64,000 nucleotides of DNA. Source: a virus (Duplodnaviria; Caudoviricetes). Position 1 is the first letter of the stretch, and each line of letters starts with the position of its first letter. The notes beneath the pieces are model-generated. The model was not told where the DNA came from, did not search any database, and saw nothing but the letters and a program-made list of their open reading frames with translations. Made by a program: the position numbers and the translations under genes. The stretch is from positions 32,001 to 96,000 of the IMG/VR virus record IMGVR_UViG_2599185230_000001. One strand, 5' to 3'. Shown piece after piece: positions 1 to 32,244 of this stretch.

Positions 1-305
1 GCAGACTGGTTTTTTAAAACACCATCTTGCCATATGGCATCCAGTTCCCTGTGAAAATCAGGAGTTTGGCGGCTGAAGTAGTGGGGGAAATATGCTTTCC
101 CGAAATACTCCAGATCGATAGCCCCAAGCTTTTTTCTTATCCCGTGTTTGCCGGTCAGGGGCTTTCCATCCCGGTAGTCTTGCAAAAGCTTCAAACGCTC
201 GGGCGAAGAGTCCCTCTGCAGGTATTTCTCCATGAGCATTTTTAGCTCTTCCACCCCCTGGTGCACTTCCAGGTTTCGTTCCCTGATGTCTTTTAAAATG
301 CTCAC
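1..305 (-). CDS. Large terminase subunit, N-terminal part (not in ORF track; runs off the window)
   Basis: GGAGGTGG RBS then GTG at 305; open frame MSILKDIRERNLE...LGAIDLEYFGKAYFPHYF...FHRELDAIW; position downstream of DUF3486. Confidence 0.75.
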   Translation of the reverse strand, partial: MSILKDIRERNLEVHQGVEELKMLMEKYLQRDSSPERLKLLQDYRDGKPLTGKHGIRKKLGAIDLEYFGKAYFPHYFSRQTPDFHRELDAIWQDGVLKNQS

Positions 306-423
306 TTGACCACCTCCATCCCCGGGCATAGCTTCGCCATCCAACACTTTCCTTCAAAGTGCAGCACTTTACTTCGTTTGTTCTCGTAGCGCCACGTCAC
401 CGCCGAAACAGGTGCCGCTTTAC

Positions 424-918
424 TTACGATGCCTGAATAAACTCAATCCCGAGGTTAACCTCCATTTCTTTCTGAAAGAGCGTTAACCTGACCTTTGCTC
501 TTCTTTTGCGCTTATCAATCTTTACAATATAGCCTTCCATGCCCGTAAGCGGGCCGTTAATAACTTTAATTGATTCGCCGATTTCCAGGGTGGACAATCC
601 AACCAATTCATCATCCTTACACAACCACAAAACATTAGCCATTTGATCATCAGGCACTGGAATGGGTCTGTGGTGAGCTAAAAAATTGATGACACCTGCT
701 ATTCGCCTGGCCGCATAATAATTCTTTTCATCCAGATCCATTTGCACAAAAACATACGATGGGAAAAGAATTCTGACGACTTCCCTAAAAGTACCCTTGT
801 GTCGTTCAATAACTTTTTGCCTGGGCGCCAGGGCATTTATGCCGGGTAGATCCAGAAGCAGCTTCTCCTTGATAGTGGTTTCTTCCCCAGTCATGACGTG
901 GAGCACATACCATTTCAT
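424..918 (-). CDS. NusG-paralogue antiterminator (LoaP-like; NGN + KOW)
   Basis: WYVLHVMTGEE, LFPSYVFV, KOW GESIKVINGPLTGMEG, basic IDKRKRRAKV. Confidence 0.9.
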   Translation of the reverse strand: MKWYVLHVMTGEETTIKEKLLLDLPGINALAPRQKVIERHKGTFREVVRILFPSYVFVQMDLDEKNYYAARRIAGVINFLAHHRPIPVPDDQMANVLWLCKDDELVGLSTLEIGESIKVINGPLTGMEGYIVKIDKRKRRAKVRLTLFQKEMEVNLGIEFIQAS

Positions 919-1484
919 GATTCTTCAGCTTCCAATCTTTCAGCCACTCTGTTGGCTACCTGGATCAGCCTTTCACACAATTCAGGCTCCACTCCTTCAA
1001 GCTCTGCATAAACTTCCTTCTTAAATTCCGCCAGGGCAATTTTAGCTTCCTGAGCCAGGTCGGCCCTAATTCTATCCTTATAAACCTTAGTCCTCGACAG
1101 AGCCACCATTACCCGGGCCGCCTTATCCAGGGGCATCTCATCCCATTCCTCTTGGGCCTGGGCCAACTTCTTGGTTAGCTCACCGCTCATGATCTGCAGC
1201 GCCCCTTCGGTATAGTCGGCATCGGGATTTTTCTTAATTGCCTCAATCAACATCCTGGTTTGTTCCTGGGCCTCCAGCAGCCTTTGGGTAGCGTGATTGG
1301 TTCGCAGCGCATATCTGCCGATAGCGCTTTTGGAGATGTCATACCCTTCGGACTTTAGGTGCTCGGATATATCATTGTACGTATTATTGGTATCCAGAAG
1401 CATAGCCTCAACTTTTAATTTCAGCTCTTCCGGCAGCTCATCCACTTTAGACCTTGTTCTTGTCCGTTGCCTTTGCTCACCCAC
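915..1484 (-). CDS. DUF3486 / Mu gp27-like protein (putative small terminase)
   Basis: RSKVDELPEEL...GYDISKSAIGRY signature; position. Confidence 0.85.
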   Translation of the reverse strand: MGEQRQRTRTRSKVDELPEELKLKVEAMLLDTNNTYNDISEHLKSEGYDISKSAIGRYALRTNHATQRLLEAQEQTRMLIEAIKKNPDADYTEGALQIMSGELTKKLAQAQEEWDEMPLDKAARVMVALSRTKVYKDRIRADLAQEAKIALAEFKKEVYAELEGVEPELCERLIQVANRVAERLEAEES

Positions 1485-2631: not shown

Positions 2632-2973
2632 TTATGAAGCATCTTGTTCATCTAAACCAAACCCGAAATCCAAGAGAGTTAATTGACCGTCATTAGCTGG
2701 ACCACATATTTCAACTATCCAGCGCTCACTTAAATTATATTTTTTGGCAAGTTCGGCATGATTATAACCATTAAACTCCTTTTTAATGTTAATATCCCTG
2801 GCCGGCCTTAAAAATGTATCTGCTTTTGGTATATAAATCGTTTTACCACCTAATATCTTAGCCAGCTTAATAAAATTCTCAATTCCGATTATCTCAGCCA
2901 GCTCTCTATAAGAATCAGGAATCATATCCAGAGTCAGATCATTTATCCAACTTTCTAGCACCAACAGGATCAC
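2632..2973 (-). CDS. mor: Mor/C-family transcription activator
   Basis: LGGKTIYIPK...RDINIKKEFNGYNHAELAKKYNLSERWI. Confidence 0.9.
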   Translation of the reverse strand: MILLVLESWINDLTLDMIPDSYRELAEIIGIENFIKLAKILGGKTIYIPKADTFLRPARDINIKKEFNGYNHAELAKKYNLSERWIVEICGPANDGQLTLLDFGFGLDEQDAS

Positions 2974-3027: not shown

Positions 3028-3840
3028 CTATTTCTGCGTACTAACCCCAACTTTATTCAGCACATACTCAATGGTACGTCGCATAAATACTGCACTTTCC
3101 GCTCTTGTAGTTGGCTTATCAGGATAAAATTTATTATCTTTATAACCTGAAACAAGTCCTTCTTTAGCTAACCACTCAATGTCACCAGCGGCATAGTGTC
3201 CTATAATATCCTTGAACATTGACAAAATCTCCTCCTTAAATTTTGTGTTCCACCATCCTTCATTTCCGTAAGACTCGTTAAAATCCACATTAATTCCCGC
3301 TAAAGCTTGATCGTTTTTATATTGATATATGTTTACATATTGGCTTTTTTTGCCCTGTGACCAAGCGTAAGTTTGCCAAAAGTTATTAACTACACCACGT
3401 CTGGCCATCTCCTCAACCACGTTAAATGAGCCATAAACACCAATATTATAATCAACTAAAACGCTGGCAGCTGCACCTAGATATTGTTCAATTACTGAAT
3501 AGTCTTTTGGTTGAGCATCATAATCCACTGCAAAATAAATAACTGTGCCTTTGGGCTGACCAATCTCCAAGGCCTCTTTGAGTGCTAGTGCCCCGTCAGC
3601 TTTTCCAGCGGCTGCACCACCAGTAGACCGGTTTGCTGATGTTTCAAACACGCTTATTATATTTAATCCGGCAGTGGTAATAGCTTCAGCCTCCTGTTTA
3701 GTAAGACGCTTCCATGCCATTGACGGAGTATTAGGCACTAAATAACGGCAAATAAACTTCATCCCGGTGGCTGCTATTGTCTTTGCTGTTTCAACAGTTA
3801 GCGGCGTGGCGCAATCAATACCTTTCATATTATTATTCAC
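3028..3840 (-). CDS. DUF1906 (GH25-like) glycoside hydrolase with C-terminal SLH domain; probable endolysin
   Basis: GIDCATPL, FICRYL, IYFAVDYD, WQTYAWS; SLH FKDIIGHYA...GY.D.KFYPDKPTTRAE. Confidence 0.85.
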   Translation of the reverse strand: MNNNMKGIDCATPLTVETAKTIAATGMKFICRYLVPNTPSMAWKRLTKQEAEAITTAGLNIISVFETSANRSTGGAAAGKADGALALKEALEIGQPKGTVIYFAVDYDAQPKDYSVIEQYLGAAASVLVDYNIGVYGSFNVVEEMARRGVVNNFWQTYAWSQGKKSQYVNIYQYKNDQALAGINVDFNESYGNEGWWNTKFKEEILSMFKDIIGHYAAGDIEWLAKEGLVSGYKDNKFYPDKPTTRAESAVFMRRTIEYVLNKVGVSTQK

Positions 3841-9570: not shown

Positions 9571-11646
9571 TTATCCCAGTTTACGGAGCACAGCCAATGC
9601 TTTCTCCGCTTTTTTTCGATAAAATTCATTGTCTAACTGGTCATTATGCTTCTTATTCCTAACCTCATCCTTAAACTGCTTATCTTCCGGCAGGGCAACC
9701 ACATTGTCAACCGGTTTTTTGCCTTGCTTCTTAATGACAAAACCGCCCACCGTATCACTTGGCCCGTTGACATGCTGGTTGATGCGCTGTTCAAATGGGG
9801 TAGTGTATTCCTTGATGCGTTCTCTGTCCCGCTTAAGCTGCCTGTGCTGGGCCTTCATGTGCTCTTCCAAAGCCTTTTGAGGTACCTTTGGAGCAATTAA
9901 GAGCAGATCCTGACTTAAAGCCTCGCAGATTTTTTTGCCGTCTAAGGTGTAAACATACAACCTAGTCACATCTTCCTGGTCCCAACGAATATCTACTTTG
10001 TCGCCGATGTAGTCACATAACTCGTCCGCCCGGTACTCATAACCAAACTTATGGATTCCGGTGTTATAAACATGGACCCGGTCGGCCCTCATCATCAACA
10101 TACTGGCGTATGACCTAGGCGGCGCCGGCTTATAATAGCGCTCTTCGGCATTAGCGAACAACTCGGCAGGCTTTCTCCATTGTTCTTTTGCCTTTTTTAA
10201 GCCTTTGTGGTCCTTCTGGTGATACTTCTCATTGAGCCACTTCTGCCACAGTTCATAAAATTCTTCCAGTGTTAGCAGCTCATCCCGCTCCAGCATTCCC
10301 TTAATATCTTTTCTGACTTTACCCGCGGTGCGCGAGCCGGTTAGCGTTCCGGTGTAACTGGCCAACCATTTACTAAACTCACTGCACACTATGCCGAAAA
10401 AACGTTCGATATATGCCTTGCTCCATGGCTGATAAGGCAGGCTTCGAATATCATCCTGGATGCCAACGCTTTTGTAAAAGCCTACCGTCTCACTATCGAA
10501 GCTGACCCGATATTTGCGTTTGCGGCCCGTTAGGGTTTCGGCGGTGTATTCCTTCCCGTTGTCGATGTTGATCCATTGAGGAACCCCGCACGGTTTACCG
10601 CCAATTTCGTTGTAGATCATCTTTAGAATGGACTGCTTCATGATTTCAGCGTTGGCGTGTAAGCACATTACACTGCTGGGAATGGCCCTGCTTCTAATAT
10701 CTACCCAGGCCACCAGGTTGGGCTTGATGGCTGTTACCTTCCCATTAGGGTGTGTATACTTCACCCAATCGTCAAAGGTATGAACATCGCCTTGGACAAG
10801 CCCCATCACCGGCAGGGATTTAGAATCACGGGAAGCCTTGACCATAACTTTATTCCGGTATTCCCTGGCGCCTCTAGCCGCTAAGAAATGGGCATTTTTG
10901 CCCCGTTTTTCCTCCATCAGATAGTTTACATACCTGGCCACCGTCTGGTAGGAGGGGTAAGGCCAACCATTCTTTCCAGCGACTTCCTCCATCTTTTCGT
11001 AAAGCATCTCAACAGTGCTGTTATTGGCAGCAAATTCCTTATCAAACCACAGATTTTCAATGAAAGCCCTTGCTCTATCAGTCAGTGAAGGAAAGGTGAA
11101 TCGCTGTTTAGGCTTCCGGCACAAGGCTAAAACCTTGAAAAAATCATAATTTTTACCGTCTTCCTTGTTTAACTTCACGGCCCAGGCGCTTGCCTCCAGG
11201 TAGTTTTCCGCCTGCCGGTATAAGGTTCGTAGGCTTATCCCTTTTAAATCAGCGAACTCCTGGGCAAACTCGGTGCGGTTATCACCGGCGTAATTCAGAA
11301 ACTCCTGAACGGTCTTGGTGAATTCCACCGCCTTGTAATACTGGCCGCCATGGTTTTCGACGTACCAGTTTAATTCCACATCGACATACCATGGCATGCT
11401 GTTCGTTATCCGTTTATCAACCACAACATCCCCCCCTTCAATGCTTTGGGCTTCCTTATGCGCCCTTCGCGCTTTTTTCGAAAGGGAGGATACGGCAACC
11501 AGAACCCGCTCTTTGCCGCCGTTTACGGCTGGCTCTGTTTTGGTCTTAAAGGCTTCGGGATTGCGCTTCATGCGTTGAATTAGGGTGTTATACTTGATAC
11601 CCTCGTATTCCGCAGCCTCTTCCAGCGTGATATAAGCATCTGCCAA
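9571..11646 (-). CDS. MuA-like DDE transposase
   Basis: GDVHTFD / DNGKEY / KAYIERFF triad; C-terminal Mu-transposase domain. Confidence 0.95.
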   Translation of the reverse strand: MADAYITLEEAAEYEGIKYNTLIQRMKRNPEAFKTKTEPAVNGGKERVLVAVSSLSKKARRAHKEAQSIEGGDVVVDKRITNSMPWYVDVELNWYVENHGGQYYKAVEFTKTVQEFLNYAGDNRTEFAQEFADLKGISLRTLYRQAENYLEASAWAVKLNKEDGKNYDFFKVLALCRKPKQRFTFPSLTDRARAFIENLWFDKEFAANNSTVEMLYEKMEEVAGKNGWPYPSYQTVARYVNYLMEEKRGKNAHFLAARGAREYRNKVMVKASRDSKSLPVMGLVQGDVHTFDDWVKYTHPNGKVTAIKPNLVAWVDIRSRAIPSSVMCLHANAEIMKQSILKMIYNEIGGKPCGVPQWINIDNGKEYTAETLTGRKRKYRVSFDSETVGFYKSVGIQDDIRSLPYQPWSKAYIERFFGIVCSEFSKWLASYTGTLTGSRTAGKVRKDIKGMLERDELLTLEEFYELWQKWLNEKYHQKDHKGLKKAKEQWRKPAELFANAEERYYKPAPPRSYASMLMMRADRVHVYNTGIHKFGYEYRADELCDYIGDKVDIRWDQEDVTRLYVYTLDGKKICEALSQDLLLIAPKVPQKALEEHMKAQHRQLKRDRERIKEYTTPFEQRINQHVNGPSDTVGGFVIKKQGKKPVDNVVALPEDKQFKDEVRNKKHNDQLDNEFYRKKAEKALAVLRKLG

Positions 11647-14400: not shown

Positions 14401-14551
14401 AAAATTTACCTGACAATAAATGTATTCTCAAAATAATTGTTCGCCGTTTTTTAATAAATCCCACCTAATCCCTTGTCATCTCTGTGTTTCCCACCCTTTC
14501 CCGGTTCATCTTTTCTAGTAAACCTATTGTCAGTTATTTTGTTAATCTACA
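14401..14551 (-). repeat. Transposon end with candidate transposase-binding sites
   Basis: Terminal TGTAGATTAACAAAATAACTGACAATAG; inverted internal copy AAAATTTACCTGACAATAA at 14401. Confidence 0.7.
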
Positions 14552-15404
14552 CCCATGCCAACTTTTCCACCGCATGCTCCAAATCCTGAACCGACGGCCT
14601 GGTATACCTGGCCGTTGTATTAAGATCAGCATGCCCCATTAACGCGGCCACCCTGTCCAGGCTTTCCCCGGTATCCACGAGCATTTTCCCAAAGGTGTGT
14701 CGCAGCATATGCGGAGTGACATCCACCCCTGCTAACCGTGCGTATTTTGTTAGTACATTCTCGGCAGACCTAGTTGTGATATGTGCACCCCGGCGACCGG
14801 GAAATAACCACCCCGATTTCGCTTCATTTACGTACACATCCAATATTCTGCGCACTGTTACGTTTAGCGGTACCTCCCGATATTTATCTCCTTTGCCCTG
14901 ACGGATAATAACAAATCCGGAACGTTCACGAAGAGTTATGTCTTCAATTCGCAATGAAACAGCTTCAGATATTCGTAAACCGGTATGTAAAAGCAACATA
15001 ATCAGTGCAGTATCCCTCTCCTTACCATATTTTTGAACTGCTCTGATTAAAGCTCCAAGTTCCCTCCGGTCAAGCCATCGTGGGGCATTTTTTTGCTCCT
15101 GTACCCTTTTGATACCCGTAGCCGGGTTGGTTTTAACTAAATCCACAATACATGCCCAGGTGAAAAAGCTATTAATTACATCCAGGGCATGATTGACCGT
15201 GGCCGGTTTTTTCTTCTGATTGATAAGGTTGTTGCGATAATTGGCTATATCCAGGGCAGTTACGGAACGGGGATCGAACCGGCCATAGGTTTGGGCCAAC
15301 CACCCGGCAAACCGGTGTATCGTCTGCATATAAGAGCGCACGGTACGTTGGGATAGGCCCCGCCCCTGCAAGTTCGTTTTGAAATTACTTAAAAATTTTT
15401 CCAC
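14547..15404 (-). CDS. Tyrosine recombinase (XerD-like)
   Basis: TGLRISE, GKGDK, HMLRH, LMGH, RYT catalytic set intact. Confidence 0.93.
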   Translation of the reverse strand: MEKFLSNFKTNLQGRGLSQRTVRSYMQTIHRFAGWLAQTYGRFDPRSVTALDIANYRNNLINQKKKPATVNHALDVINSFFTWACIVDLVKTNPATGIKRVQEQKNAPRWLDRRELGALIRAVQKYGKERDTALIMLLLHTGLRISEAVSLRIEDITLRERSGFVIIRQGKGDKYREVPLNVTVRRILDVYVNEAKSGWLFPGRRGAHITTRSAENVLTKYARLAGVDVTPHMLRHTFGKMLVDTGESLDRVAALMGHADLNTTARYTRPSVQDLEHAVEKLAWV

Positions 15405-15483: not shown

Positions 15484-17427
15484 TTAAACAGCCATCTGTT
15501 CAAGTAATTGTGCCATAGTCGTTATATTAACGGCCGTTGTCATCTCGGGAATATTCGCCCTCACTAGCGCGGTAGCAACAGGGGGACATACGGCGTTACC
15601 ACATCTAGCGACTTGGGCAGTCTTGCTGTACGCTTTGCCGAGATAGTCCCTGTCAATCATGTAATCCGGCGGAAAGCCTTGAGCGTTGTAAAGCTCGCGC
15701 GGAGTCAGCATCCGCATGCCGATATCCGCGATAAAATACGCAGTACCATTTATCCAGAGAAGGATTACTTCATCGTCGGCTAAAATATAGCTACAGTATT
15801 TATTTAACAATGCACGTATCTTCGGCCAGTTTTTAAGATCTGCTCCTGGCATGGCTTTTACAAGAGTCGTATATACCGTCCCGAACTCACCGCCACCAGC
15901 TGTTAATGTTTGCAATGGCTCATGCGGAATTTGCCCAATATTTGTTCCCTTGAATTTAATAATGTGTGAAGTAACAACAGCCGTATGACTGTTGCAGAGT
16001 TGGGTGTTTACCGGTTCTTCCACGCTTCGCGCAACACTCGCTTTGCCGTGGAATTCGGATAGCACTGCTGTTGTTAATGCCTCCCGATCTTTTGACGTTA
16101 TTGTGTGGCATGGGCTATCCATATCGTGACCATGCTTTTCAGTACCGAAATATTTAACTATCTGAGCAGCCGCCAACCCATAGCGGTTAGAACCATCAAT
16201 GGTCATAATAGGAATCGCAAGGTTTTGTCCTCTGACGTACTCCTGCTTTTTTTCGCTGTGATACTGGATCAGGGAGGGCATTATAAGCATTTGACTTCCG
16301 GAACTGGTTACCGTGTTCATCGGCACCCTCATGTCTGTTCCACTCGCGTTCTCATGATTATGCATGTAGAAGGGGGTTATCACCGGCGCTGCTACTCCGT
16401 ATCCATGCTTTGCCGTAACAGTCTGCATAACGTCGTCAATGCTGCCGCCCCTAAATCCACCCGAATGATTTGTAATTACAATAAAAGGTTTACCACTCCT
16501 GATCGTGAATTTATCCACACCACGCGCCACCCGCTTTAGTGTGTTATCCGCCAAGGGACGGACGGCATTGACACCGTACTGCTCCTTAATCTCTGCCTTG
16601 CTGGCGAAAATAGACGGGCAAGGGATTGACCAGTTAATGATCTCGGCGGCGCTGCGCCATTTTGGCAGGCTGTTTTTTCCGTCCCGCGAGTGTGTTGGTT
16701 TCGGCTTAACAATCGGTTGCCCGTCGCACCGAAACACACCGAAATATCGCTTGCGGATTGTAGGCGCTCCATAGTCCGCTGCTACAAGTTCCCAGCCGTC
16801 GTAATCGTAGCCAAGCCCCCTGATAAGGCGCTGTGCGTCTGGACTGAACGGCGCGATGTGCAGGAACTCGCAAGCTTCCATCAGCGCAGGGTGATCAGGC
16901 TCAATACCGGTCGTCAACATACCAATGAATGCCTTGAAAGTCTCTCCAACGTGATCCGGATCGGGATACCACTTACCATCCGACCGCTGGATCAGCGGTC
17001 CCCAGGTCTGGATCTCCTCGACGTTCTCCATGAACATAACACGAGGCCGAACGGCAAGTGCCCACCGAAGGATAACCCATGACAGGCCGCGAATTTTCTT
17101 TTCGACCGGTTTTCCACCCTTCGCCTTGGAAAAATGTCGGCAGTCCGGGGAGAACCAAGCAATGCCGACCGGCCGACCGGCGCACACCTTAACTGGATCG
17201 ACGTCAAATACGTCCTCCTGCAGGTGCTGTGTATAGGGATGATTTGTACGGTGCATTCTAATCGCGTCTGGATCGTGGTTGACGGCGATCGTCACCGGCG
17301 CGCCGGTCGCTATTGATATACCCGTGTCGGCTCCGCCTCCACCAGCAAAGTTTACGACGGTAATCTCATCAAAAAGGATCTCCTGTGCTTTCAAGCACGT
17401 ATTTATCATCATCTCGTCCTCCAGCAT
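15484..17427 (-). CDS. Phage-type C5 cytosine DNA methyltransferase
   Basis: FAGGGG, SPDC, ENVEE, RKR, GNAV motifs; long variable region. Confidence 0.92.
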   Translation of the reverse strand: MLEDEMMINTCLKAQEILFDEITVVNFAGGGGADTGISIATGAPVTIAVNHDPDAIRMHRTNHPYTQHLQEDVFDVDPVKVCAGRPVGIAWFSPDCRHFSKAKGGKPVEKKIRGLSWVILRWALAVRPRVMFMENVEEIQTWGPLIQRSDGKWYPDPDHVGETFKAFIGMLTTGIEPDHPALMEACEFLHIAPFSPDAQRLIRGLGYDYDGWELVAADYGAPTIRKRYFGVFRCDGQPIVKPKPTHSRDGKNSLPKWRSAAEIINWSIPCPSIFASKAEIKEQYGVNAVRPLADNTLKRVARGVDKFTIRSGKPFIVITNHSGGFRGGSIDDVMQTVTAKHGYGVAAPVITPFYMHNHENASGTDMRVPMNTVTSSGSQMLIMPSLIQYHSEKKQEYVRGQNLAIPIMTIDGSNRYGLAAAQIVKYFGTEKHGHDMDSPCHTITSKDREALTTAVLSEFHGKASVARSVEEPVNTQLCNSHTAVVTSHIIKFKGTNIGQIPHEPLQTLTAGGGEFGTVYTTLVKAMPGADLKNWPKIRALLNKYCSYILADDEVILLWINGTAYFIADIGMRMLTPRELYNAQGFPPDYMIDRDYLGKAYSKTAQVARCGNAVCPPVATALVRANIPEMTTAVNITTMAQLLEQMAV

Positions 17428-31876: not shown

Positions 31877-32244
31877 TTGTTATGCCTCCTGCGTTTATCT
31901 TTTTTAGGGAAGGTCTTGCAGTAGCTGTAATAAGAAAGGTCTGGCCTGGGAGTTTCCCTTTTATTTCGTACCTTCACCTGTCCATCAGATAAGAACGGAT
32001 ATTCTTGACGGGTCACTTTATCGGGGCACTTGTCGGCCAGATCATCTTTTAAAATGCAATTGGCCAGCCATTCCAGCGGTTTGGTGTCGGGTAATTCACC
32101 CGTCTGATTAACATAGGCTTCGCAAAGGTCGTCCACGGCTTTTATACGCCACGGCATGGGCATTTCTTTTGCCGTTAGTTCCTTTACAGCTTCCGTAAAG
32201 GCCGTTTTGTAATCGCTGTCTTTACTGAATTTACCGTCATACAA
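31861..32244 (-). CDS. Conserved phage hypothetical protein
   Basis: Overlaps both neighbours; PDKVTRQEYPFLS. Confidence 0.7.
   Translation of the reverse strand: MYDGKFSKDSDYKTAFTEAVKELTAKEMPMPWRIKAVDDLCEAYVNQTGELPDTKPLEWLANCILKDDLADKCPDKVTRQEYPFLSDGQVKVRNKRETPRPDLSYYSYCKTFPKKDKRRRHNKCSSL

Follow-up and report, generated by a model that had tools for sequence, protein, structure and literature searches.

The window analysed here is a stretch of 64,000 nt from the genome of a tailed phage (Duplodnaviria; Caudoviricetes; IMG/VR record IMGVR_UViG_2599185230_000001, positions 32,001 to 96,000). Near its left end, on the minus strand, a gene for a LoaP-type paralogue of NusG (loaP) is followed by a spacer of 118 nt (306..423) and then by the gene for the large terminase subunit (terL). 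Sequence comparisons lead us to regard it as rather probable that this spacer is a cis-acting RNA which recruits the phage's own LoaP, and that the boundary between the small and large terminase genes, terS and terL, carries a late-gene antitermination switch resembling that of lambda Q. The protein belongs to the LoaP family, and downstream of its gene an RNA element with a UNCG-capped hairpin is conserved, covaries in both of its helices and is near-obligately linked to the gene. The element is related to RAGATH-28 (RF03052), an orphan candidate RNA (Weinberg et al. 2017) to which Rfam assigns no function. The pairing of a phage LoaP with RAGATH-28 appears to be new, as does the extra module formed by the second hairpin and the tail of the element, while the protein family itself is known.

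The RNA element in the spacer between loaP and terL

The element and its parts lie on the minus strand, downstream of the loaP stop codon. The first-pass annotation of this DNA, which was made from the letters alone, had described a spacer of 118 nt with a bulged UUCG hairpin at 398-414, and both are present there. This first hairpin (P1), noted earlier as CACC-U-GU-UUCG-GC-GGUG at 414-398, extends to 416/396. Taken in full (396..416), it has an outer stem of 416-411 paired with 401-396, in which one G·A mismatch occurs, then a bulged U410, two inner pairs (G409-C402 and U408·G403) and a UUCG loop (407-404). It is thus a hairpin of the UNCG type, carried on the transcript of the adjacent operon that is the proposed target. 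P1 is followed by the linker motif GAGAACAAAC (376..385), which is the counterpart of GGACAUA in the family (alignments A3 and A4), with A near-invariant at two linker columns.

The second hairpin, P2 (342..364, from the cmscan alignment), has its 5' arm at 364-357, its 3' arm at 349-342 and its loop at 356-350. The 3' arm ends in the first G (342) of a 12-mer tail, GGAUGGCGAAGC (331..342), which is the most conserved part of the family and has a single occurrence in the window's prophage; a slightly longer stretch, GGAUGGCGAAGCUAUG, spans 342-327. The core of the tail, GCGAAGC (337-331), is a possible GC/GC mini-hairpin with a GAA triloop, and as DNA d(GCGAAGC) is an unusually stable mini-hairpin. 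At 4 nt past the tail stands a CCC (324..326), and across the family the alignments show a conserved CC(C) 2-4 nt past the tail.

The spacer had also been thought to hold mutually exclusive AAAGTG/CACTTT pairings. All three stretches exist as described, i.e., an upstream AAAGUG (365..370) that is an alternative partner of CACUUU (361-356), and a second, downstream AAAGUG (350-345), and the upstream pairing is possible in the window. As a mutually exclusive switch the proposal is not supported, since only P2 is conserved and covarying. The upstream alternative pairing is missing in the closest relatives (L001 and L002) and in the wider family, and we attribute it to chance.

Linkage of the element to phage loaP genes

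Relatives were sampled both from the protein and from the RNA. The protein-first sample used a peptide pattern from 14 homologues (alignment A2), independent of the RNA, which gave 178 matches, 172 of them confirmed relatives, of which the best 80 were retained. In the 600 nt downstream of the gene, 23 of these 80 loci have an exact 12-mer, 33 have it with one mismatch and 11 with two, and it is absent in 13; elsewhere in the same loci, at up to one mismatch, it did not occur at all (0 in 768,770 nt, both strands). A covariance model (R1), built from 41 sequences that were mutually less than 90% similar and included the window, recovered the element in 77 of the 80, in every case downstream of the gene and on the same strand. 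These 77 include 10 of the 13 loci without the 12-mer, none of the 10 being in the seed, and the sole further R1 match in 472 kb, which lies in the window, is at the level of noise (E 0.65). As for the three loci that R1 missed, L157 has 1 nt of downstream sequence, and L158 and L159 show by eye a divergent, unscored copy of the L161 type. The first-pass annotation had named lack of conservation of the spacer as grounds for giving up its proposal; the spacer is conserved far past close relatives.

The RNA-first sample used a loop and tail pattern and gave at least 117 matches in viral contigs, most of them chance matches in GC-rich coding DNA. Among the matches listed, 23 loci have a LoaP homologue ending 18-335 nt upstream (tblastn, E at most 5e-8, 30-70% identity), and by-eye reading of the sequences identified these same 23 as the ones showing a RAGATH-28-like P1. 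At L128 the hairpin is present and no LoaP homologue was detected in what are only 352 nt to the contig end. When 151 genomes of the class were scanned with R1, five were matched, including the window's own; all three matches of at least 39 bits, again including the window's own, have loaP directly upstream, and the weak ones (26.2 and 24.7 bits) are without it.

The neighbouring genes are also maintained. In all 10 loci tested for it, the gene upstream of LoaP was Phage_Mu_Gp27 (truncated and weak in one), and a large terminase subunit came after the element in seven of the eight tested. Terminases of three Pfam types follow the element, sometimes after a small open reading frame (ORF) with a helix-turn-helix (HTH), and in one case the following ORF, of 587 aa, had no Pfam match. 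The order gp27, LoaP, element, terminase is thus kept before different terminase types, and across loci the next start codon lies anywhere from ~25 nt to >200 nt past the element.

These arrangements bear on an explanation in which the element would be a LoaP-independent cis-regulatory RNA for the terminase and late genes, acting on translation of the first packaging gene, on RNA processing or on mRNA stability, and would co-travel with loaP as part of one terS/terL module. It would suit such an RNA that in the window the end of the tail lies only 14 nt ahead of the ribosome-binding site (RBS) of terL, that RAGATH motifs were defined via ribozyme-rich phage regions, with hammerhead and twister ribozymes on the same contigs, and that Rfam files RAGATH-28 as a small RNA (sRNA) gene. 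Nevertheless, we consider this explanation unlikely: the distance to the start codon is variable and the next gene differs, being terL of any of three Pfam types or the small HTH ORF, whereas the upstream gene is always LoaP-like, UNCG is a known LoaP determinant, and the apical octamer of P1 recurs unchanged beside chromosomal loaP genes.

Two further features were seen in the sampled loci. Phages of the L182 type have a conserved ORF of 58-61 aa between the LoaP-like gene and the element (L022:7529-7705, L075:7039-7224 and L081:8056-8232), and the element consequently lies ~300 nt past the LoaP-like gene. Furthermore, two or three direct repeats of CGTTTAA(A/C), at a spacing of ~10-25 nt, stand ahead of the first packaging gene, past the element or its terminator, in L020, L022, L067, L072, L089 and L090, and directly before the RBS in L158 (3210-3245) and L159. 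These repeats, which are absent in the window, could be a protein-binding site.

Covariation of the helices and signatures of the loops

The two helices were written onto a plain MAFFT alignment with no structure fitting. In that alignment 74.0% of cells were paired, compared with 55.4 ± 1.4% in shuffles (none of 500 reached the observed value), and 134 cells were changed on both sides, compared with 65.5 in shuffles. The covariation score was 0.448, against 0.195 in shuffles and at most 0.214 when the partners were slid by 1-3 columns. A model-fitted alignment of 60 distinct rows, which leans towards structure, gave 77.7% paired cells and a score of 0.490, against at most 0.205 when slid. Compensatory changes are found in 15 of the 16 pairs (P1 8 of 9, P2 7 of 7). 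The first-pass annotation had called for a covariation check on related spacers, and both helices covary in these alignments.

Folding of this kind also matters for the possibility that the element is a signal at the DNA level, either for recognition by the terminase (pac-like) or for some other protein that binds between terS and terL. The position between the small and large terminase genes would fit such a signal, and so would the tail, which is invariant as expected of a protein-binding site. We hold it to be very improbable, since compensatory changes in two helices indicate a folded single strand, the element keeps to one strand with respect to the gene, and the 12-mer stands unchanged before terminases of different families. 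Moreover, transposable phages of the Mu type start packaging from a genome end.

The loops carry signatures of their own. In 59 distinct copies the apical loop of P1 was UUCG in 40, UACG in eight, UGCG in four, CUCG in three, GUAA in two and something else in two, i.e., UNCG in 52 of 59, and loop variation thus hardly extends past the N of UNCG. Changes in the 2-bp mini-stem beneath the loop are compensatory (A-U 42, U·G 13, G-C 3). The tail core varies as GCG-A/C/U/G-AGC, with GCAACGC and GCAGCGC as rare forms, and this corresponds to a GC/GC-closed triloop with a free middle base.

A pseudoknot between loop and tail (UUCGNC with GNCGAA) was considered and rejected because the two free bases show no covariation with each other: GCGAAGC tails are retained where the loop is UACG or UGCG, and UUCG loops where the tail is GCGUAGC. 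The pairing would likewise be broken by the change in the window itself.

The LoaP-type protein

The product of loaP (424..918, minus strand; 164 aa, stop codon TAA at 426-424) scored 163.3 bits against NCBIfam NF033641, the LoaP model, with a cut-off of 125. It failed the models for nusG (82.3 bits, cut-off 135.7), UpxY (81.8, cut-off 100) and RfaH (TIGR01955; 56.5, cut-off 144.5). The Pfam NusG domain covers residues 1-96 at 72 bits and KOW residues 114-143 at 17.5 bits, under the cut-off of 22.3; the protein has the NGN and C-terminal KOW architecture, with the KOW itself sub-threshold. Its closest solved structure is 8f5g_A (E 2e-26), to which it aligns end to end (residues 2-161) with the IER and KIDKRKRRAKV stretches kept. 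The depositors named this chain NusG, and we take the structure to be a complex of LoaP with RNA. The earlier description of the protein as LoaP-type is borne out by the model score and this structural match.

It is the sole protein in its genome above the LoaP cut-off, and the runner-up, at 93 bits and below the cut-off, is presumably the housekeeping NusG. The phage family is already present in PHROGs as phrog_6386, 'transcription antiterminator', so a phage NusG-like antiterminator is not new in itself. A search of the GenBank phage collection matched 30 records, all at <60% identity (the 25 listed at 25-31%) and several resembling host NusG, and a single-protein query of representative genomes gave five distant loci; neither search yielded a close relative.

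LoaP of Bacillus velezensis contacts RNA through E40, R41 and I143, according to a 2025 mBio paper (PMC12691694). The pair E38-R39 of the window's protein aligns with E43-R44 of 8f5g_A, in the numbering of that structure, and R39 is retained in 13 of 14 phage homologues, while E38 is not. Alignment A2 and the loci were also inspected by eye for a correspondence of residue 38 (E or I/V) with the closing pair at the apex of P1, and no pattern was found.

The same paper gives the background against which the element can be read (PMC12691694). LoaP binds a UNCG hairpin in the leader of the B. velezensis dfn operon, and this hairpin is required for antitermination, in vivo as well as in vitro. A pause site between the hairpin and the terminator aids LoaP, which antagonises NusA at the terminator, and the authors consider the step of LoaP recruitment unresolved. 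The first-pass annotation had Bacillus LoaP act through a UNCG hairpin, and the UUCG on P1 agrees with what is described for that protein (PMC12691694).

Hairpins at chromosomal loaP loci

In a sample of 401 genomes of the phylum, eight have a protein above the LoaP cut-off, the window's included. The full element was found in none of the seven other chromosomal loaP loci, where the best R1 score was 9 bits with filters off, and no gp27 homologue lies within their 1.5-kb flanks. Two of them, L228 and L229, with loaP at 181 and 173 bits against NF033641, have partial R1 matches that cover P1 only (model positions 14-37), at L228:2010-2045 and L229:2070-2105, i.e., 35-96 nt past the loaP stop codon and on the same strand, without the second hairpin and tail. 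The chromosomal hairpins read GGC-U-GUUUCGGC-GCC and GGU-C-GUUUCGGC-GCC and that of the window CACC-U-GUUUCGGC-GGUG, so that the octamer and the 5' bulge are common to all.

Because the apical octamer and the 5' bulge are identical at two chromosomal loaP loci, we read P1 as an ordinary LoaP hairpin, and the hairpins of L228 and L229 are probably ordinary LoaP target leaders. By this comparison of loci, P2 together with the tail is a phage-specific addition in this sample. At three further loci (L223, L224 and L226) a UGCG-capped hairpin was seen ~1.1 kb upstream of loaP, on the opposite strand.

A proposed mechanism for late-gene antitermination

In the mechanism that we propose, transcription through terS and loaP would yield LoaP and then the nascent P1, with its bulged U, 2-bp mini-stem and UNCG tetraloop. 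LoaP would bind P1, by analogy with the binding of Bacillus LoaP to the dfn hairpin, and would join the elongating RNA polymerase. P2 and the tail, RUGGCG-N-AGC-(N2-4)-CC, would probably hold or pause the polymerase while LoaP is loaded, and the tail may serve as a mini-hairpin, either in RNA or, like ops for RfaH, in the non-template DNA. The modified polymerase would then pass terminators and pauses across terL and the head and tail operon of ~30 kb. Binding and loading of LoaP, the pause and the read-through are the inferred parts of this scheme.

A bolder reading can be put forward tentatively, and we find it doubtful as it stands: RAGATH-28 might be the dedicated loading site of phage LoaP-type antiterminators and a widespread late-gene switch of Firmicutes Mu-like phages. 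It would be bipartite, with a UNCG hairpin that binds LoaP and with P2 and an ops-like GC-GNA-GC mini-hairpin (in RNA or non-template DNA) that pause the polymerase. If this were true, a single element would merge the RNA-based recruitment of LoaP with the recruitment of RfaH by a DNA hairpin and a pause.

Evidence weighing against recruitment of LoaP

A number of results count against the proposal that the spacer recruits LoaP for late-gene antitermination, beginning with the spacer itself. A stretch of 135 nt is no more stable than shuffled versions of it (z +0.83), of which 159 in 200 fold as well or better. RAGATH-28 was the only Rfam match, at 331-416 and with 21.3 bits against a gathering score of 45.3. 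The RAGATH-28 model also scores 20.0 and 19.3 bits elsewhere in the same genome, and the Rfam match alone was rejected as proof since it is not significant genome-wide. Furthermore, a covariance model trained without the window's clade (R2) gave the window only 10.3 bits (E 0.45), although this was its single match in the window.

The significance of the spacer is accordingly drawn from conservation and covariation in relatives, and not from thermodynamics or the Rfam score. The Rfam cmscan that had been suggested for the spacer gave an end-to-end alignment with RAGATH-28 (model positions 1-85), in which the 3' tail AUGGCGAAGC is matched exactly, at a score that falls below the family threshold. 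The window has the RAGATH-28 architecture of P1 (UUCG), linker, P2 and the tail AUGGCGAAGC, and the same genomic setting. Of 14 hairpin-bearing loci from the RNA-first sample that were scored with Rfam, nine pass the RAGATH-28 gathering score (51.1-72.8 bits), and L015, L090, L121, L128 and L120, the last a close relative of the window, are below it.

Members of the window's clade form a graded series with R2, which found the correct place in L135 at 29.6 bits (E 6.5e-7) and in L145, L142, L146 and L144 at 20-24 bits. Weaker members were L147 (16.2 bits), L138 and L139 (~15 bits), and L133 and L134 (13 bits); the clade intermediates scored at E 6.5e-7 to 0.02. Direct alignment with spacers of the L135 type, whose LoaP is ~50% identical, is unambiguous in P1, linker and tail. 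Since the R2 score of the window is weak, its membership of the family is argued through these intermediates and the direct alignment. Judged from the sequences, the window's spacer is a divergent relative of RAGATH-28, joined to it through intermediates, and not a member by Rfam score.

It may be added on the family that other RNAs above their Rfam gathering scores occur on four viral contigs with RAGATH-28 (L066, L083, L089 and L090), namely hammerhead ribozymes of type II (several), a type-P1 twister ribozyme and a GP20-b RNA.

On the side of the protein, E38 is not conserved in the proteins linked to classical RAGATH-28 copies (alignment A2, 14 homologues). LoaP is the best model for all 10 proteins of the classical RAGATH-28 set, of which seven are under the LoaP cut-off, at 53-119 bits. 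Compared with the classical RAGATH-28 set, the window's protein and its P1 both stand nearer to the cellular type. The roles given to P2 and the tail are guesses.

The remaining difficulty lies in the terminators, which were scanned for with loops of at most 8 nt, so that the long-loop terminators in loci of the L066 type are uncounted. A terminator-like site is present within 200 nt downstream of 15 of 58 distinct elements, compared with 33 of 771 control windows taken upstream. The same regions give 14 of 58 when their reverse complement is scanned, so the enrichment may in part reflect intergenic composition. In L165, L155, L172 and L167 an intrinsic terminator abuts the tail, with the conserved CCC in its 5' arm. 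In contrast, no terminator was found between the element and terL in the window's clade, including L001 and L002, and terminator-like sites are not enriched in the late operon of the prophage (20 found, 20.3 expected), where there is a single weak intergenic candidate, maybe at the end of a small ORF. If LoaP acts here, either it targets terminators or pauses that were not recognised, or the element is used differently in this clade.

The best intergenic terminator-like hairpin of the late operon lies at L131:15190-15405 (= G000:C5:27190-27405) on the minus strand and reads CCGGGAGAUUUCCGG and then GGUUUUUCUC. This CCGGGAGAUUUCCGG/GGUUUUUCUC hairpin is located after the 538-aa gene that follows the portal gene, and it may end an unannotated ORF of ~71 aa.

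The distribution of terminators also bears on a possible autoregulation of loaP, whereby LoaP would bind a hairpin in the 3' untranslated region of its own mRNA and limit or stabilise its own expression, leaving downstream transcription unaffected. The element is always directly 3' of loaP, and in many relatives a terminator comes after it, so the element could mark the 3' end of the loaP transcript. In the window's clade, however, the lack of a terminator between the element and terL makes the element internal to a longer transcript. Moreover, LoaP is known to act by antitermination, from a hairpin that lies in the leader and upstream of a terminator (PMC12691694), which is the arrangement found in the relatives. 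We therefore think autoregulation quite unlikely, and prefer recruitment of LoaP to the element for read-through into the late genes.

Comparison with known systems

The closest parallel is LoaP of the dfn and mln polyketide operons of B. velezensis, with which the phage system shares a protein in NF033641 and a UNCG-capped hairpin in the transcript before the regulated genes. The order of hairpin, spacer and intrinsic terminator in the phage relatives is also that of the dfn leader (PMC12691694), whereas the window's copy has no adjacent terminator. The phage gene differs in lying inside a Mu-like prophage between terS and terL, with a virion morphogenesis operon as its target instead of a biosynthetic cluster, and in standing upstream in the same transcript as that target. 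Furthermore, the phage RNA is larger, with P2 and an invariant tail that are absent from seven of the seven chromosomal loaP loci examined.

With RAGATH-28 the window's spacer has in common a P1 with an apical U-rich bulge and a (G-N)UUCG(N-C) module, a CAUA-like linker, P2 and an exact copy of the tail AUGGCGAAGC, and it shares its genomic setting with the copies above the Rfam threshold. It is set apart by a 1-nt bulge in P1, by GU/GC instead of GA/UC, and by the linker ACAAA instead of ACAUA.

RfaH and ops offer a second parallel, in that a NusG paralogue is recruited by a short conserved signal before a long, horizontally acquired operon; the window's protein is not itself an RfaH, as its TIGR01955 score of 56.5 bits against a cut-off of 144.5 indicates. 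The ops study (PMC5995543) describes a hairpin that the non-template strand forms, with the stem C3:G8 and the loop G4-A7, the polymerase being paused at U11. The tail core of the window, GGCG-A-AGC, resembles GGCG-GT-AGC of ops (PMC5995543), although the tail loop is one base shorter, with a free middle base, and by our own reading of the 12-mers 6 of 12 positions agree without gaps. The first-pass annotation had called the tail loosely ops-like, and the ops consensus GGCGGTAGnnTG and the window's GGCGAAGCTATG agree only in the flanks GGCG...AGC (PMC5995543).

The logic that we propose for the phage LoaP is shared with the Q, qut and tR' system of lambda. Q, encoded by the phage, loads on RNA polymerase at a site shortly past the Q gene, and the polymerase then continues through a terminator and on into the late structural genes. 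The two protein families are unrelated, and Q loads at a promoter-proximal, sigma-dependent DNA pause, whereas the signal proposed here is a hairpin that is transcribed, at a site with no evident promoter.

Our literature searches found no title or abstract on a phage-borne LoaP, no paper for the combination of NusG paralog, prophage and terminase, and no paper on RAGATH-28, whose name is absent from the main text of Weinberg et al. 2017. A report that ties RAGATH-28 to NusG or LoaP was not found either; Goodson et al. 2017, the LoaP-RNA structure paper and the supplements of Weinberg et al. 2017 might note the association. With the proposed pairing, an orphan Rfam family gains a concrete and testable partner and function, and the reach of LoaP is widened from the antibiotic and polysaccharide operons of bacteria to late-gene control in phages. 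The phage copies provide dozens of natural variants of protein and RNA (in UNCG, in the GNA tail, with or without an abutting terminator) for dissecting the recruitment of LoaP, and they may supply compact antitermination parts for synthetic operons in Gram-positive hosts.

Prophage setting

On the minus strand at the left end of the window the genes run in the order Mor-family gene, holin, two small genes, gp27-like gene, NusG paralogue, spacer and terL. The Mor-family activator gene (2632..2973; Pfam PF08765, 64.9 bits) is followed by a terminator-like hairpin in the terminator scan (2567-2553, minus strand), and the holin between the Mor and gp27-like genes matches phrog_36209. The Mu gp27-like or terS-like gene (915..1484) was identified by Pfam PF11985, Phage_Mu_Gp27 (110 bits), and by phrog_426, 'terminase small subunit' (E 2e-36), and overlaps the downstream loaP by 4 nt. 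These coordinates agree with the first-pass annotation, which placed the NusG paralogue between DUF3486 and terL.

The terL gene has an RBS, GGAGGTG, at 317-311 and a GTG start codon at 305-303 (303..317 together), both kept in L001 and L002. Its 5' part occupies 1..305 and the gene runs on to G000:C5:30566 beyond the window; the full ORF of 579 aa (L252:167-1906) matches phrog_38 with E 8.4e-110. Portal, capsid and tail-sheath genes lie left of the window. Deeper in the window are a transposase with the Mu-transposase C-terminal domain (9571-11646), a MuB-like AAA protein and an HTH repressor-like gene. The setting is that of a Mu-like prophage, as had been supposed, with Mor, the Mu-transposase C-terminal domain, the MuB-like AAA protein and gp27 all detected.

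Three other minus-strand genes of the window may be mentioned. An endolysin (3028-3840; Pfam Rv2525c_GlyHyd-like) has an S-layer homology domain, which points to an S-layer-bearing host. A tyrosine integrase or recombinase (14547-15404) lies beyond the Mu-like repressor region, and a gene at 15484-17427 encodes a protein of 647 aa with a C5 cytosine methylase domain, inside which there is a second, chance-level match to the tail motif (16651-16660).

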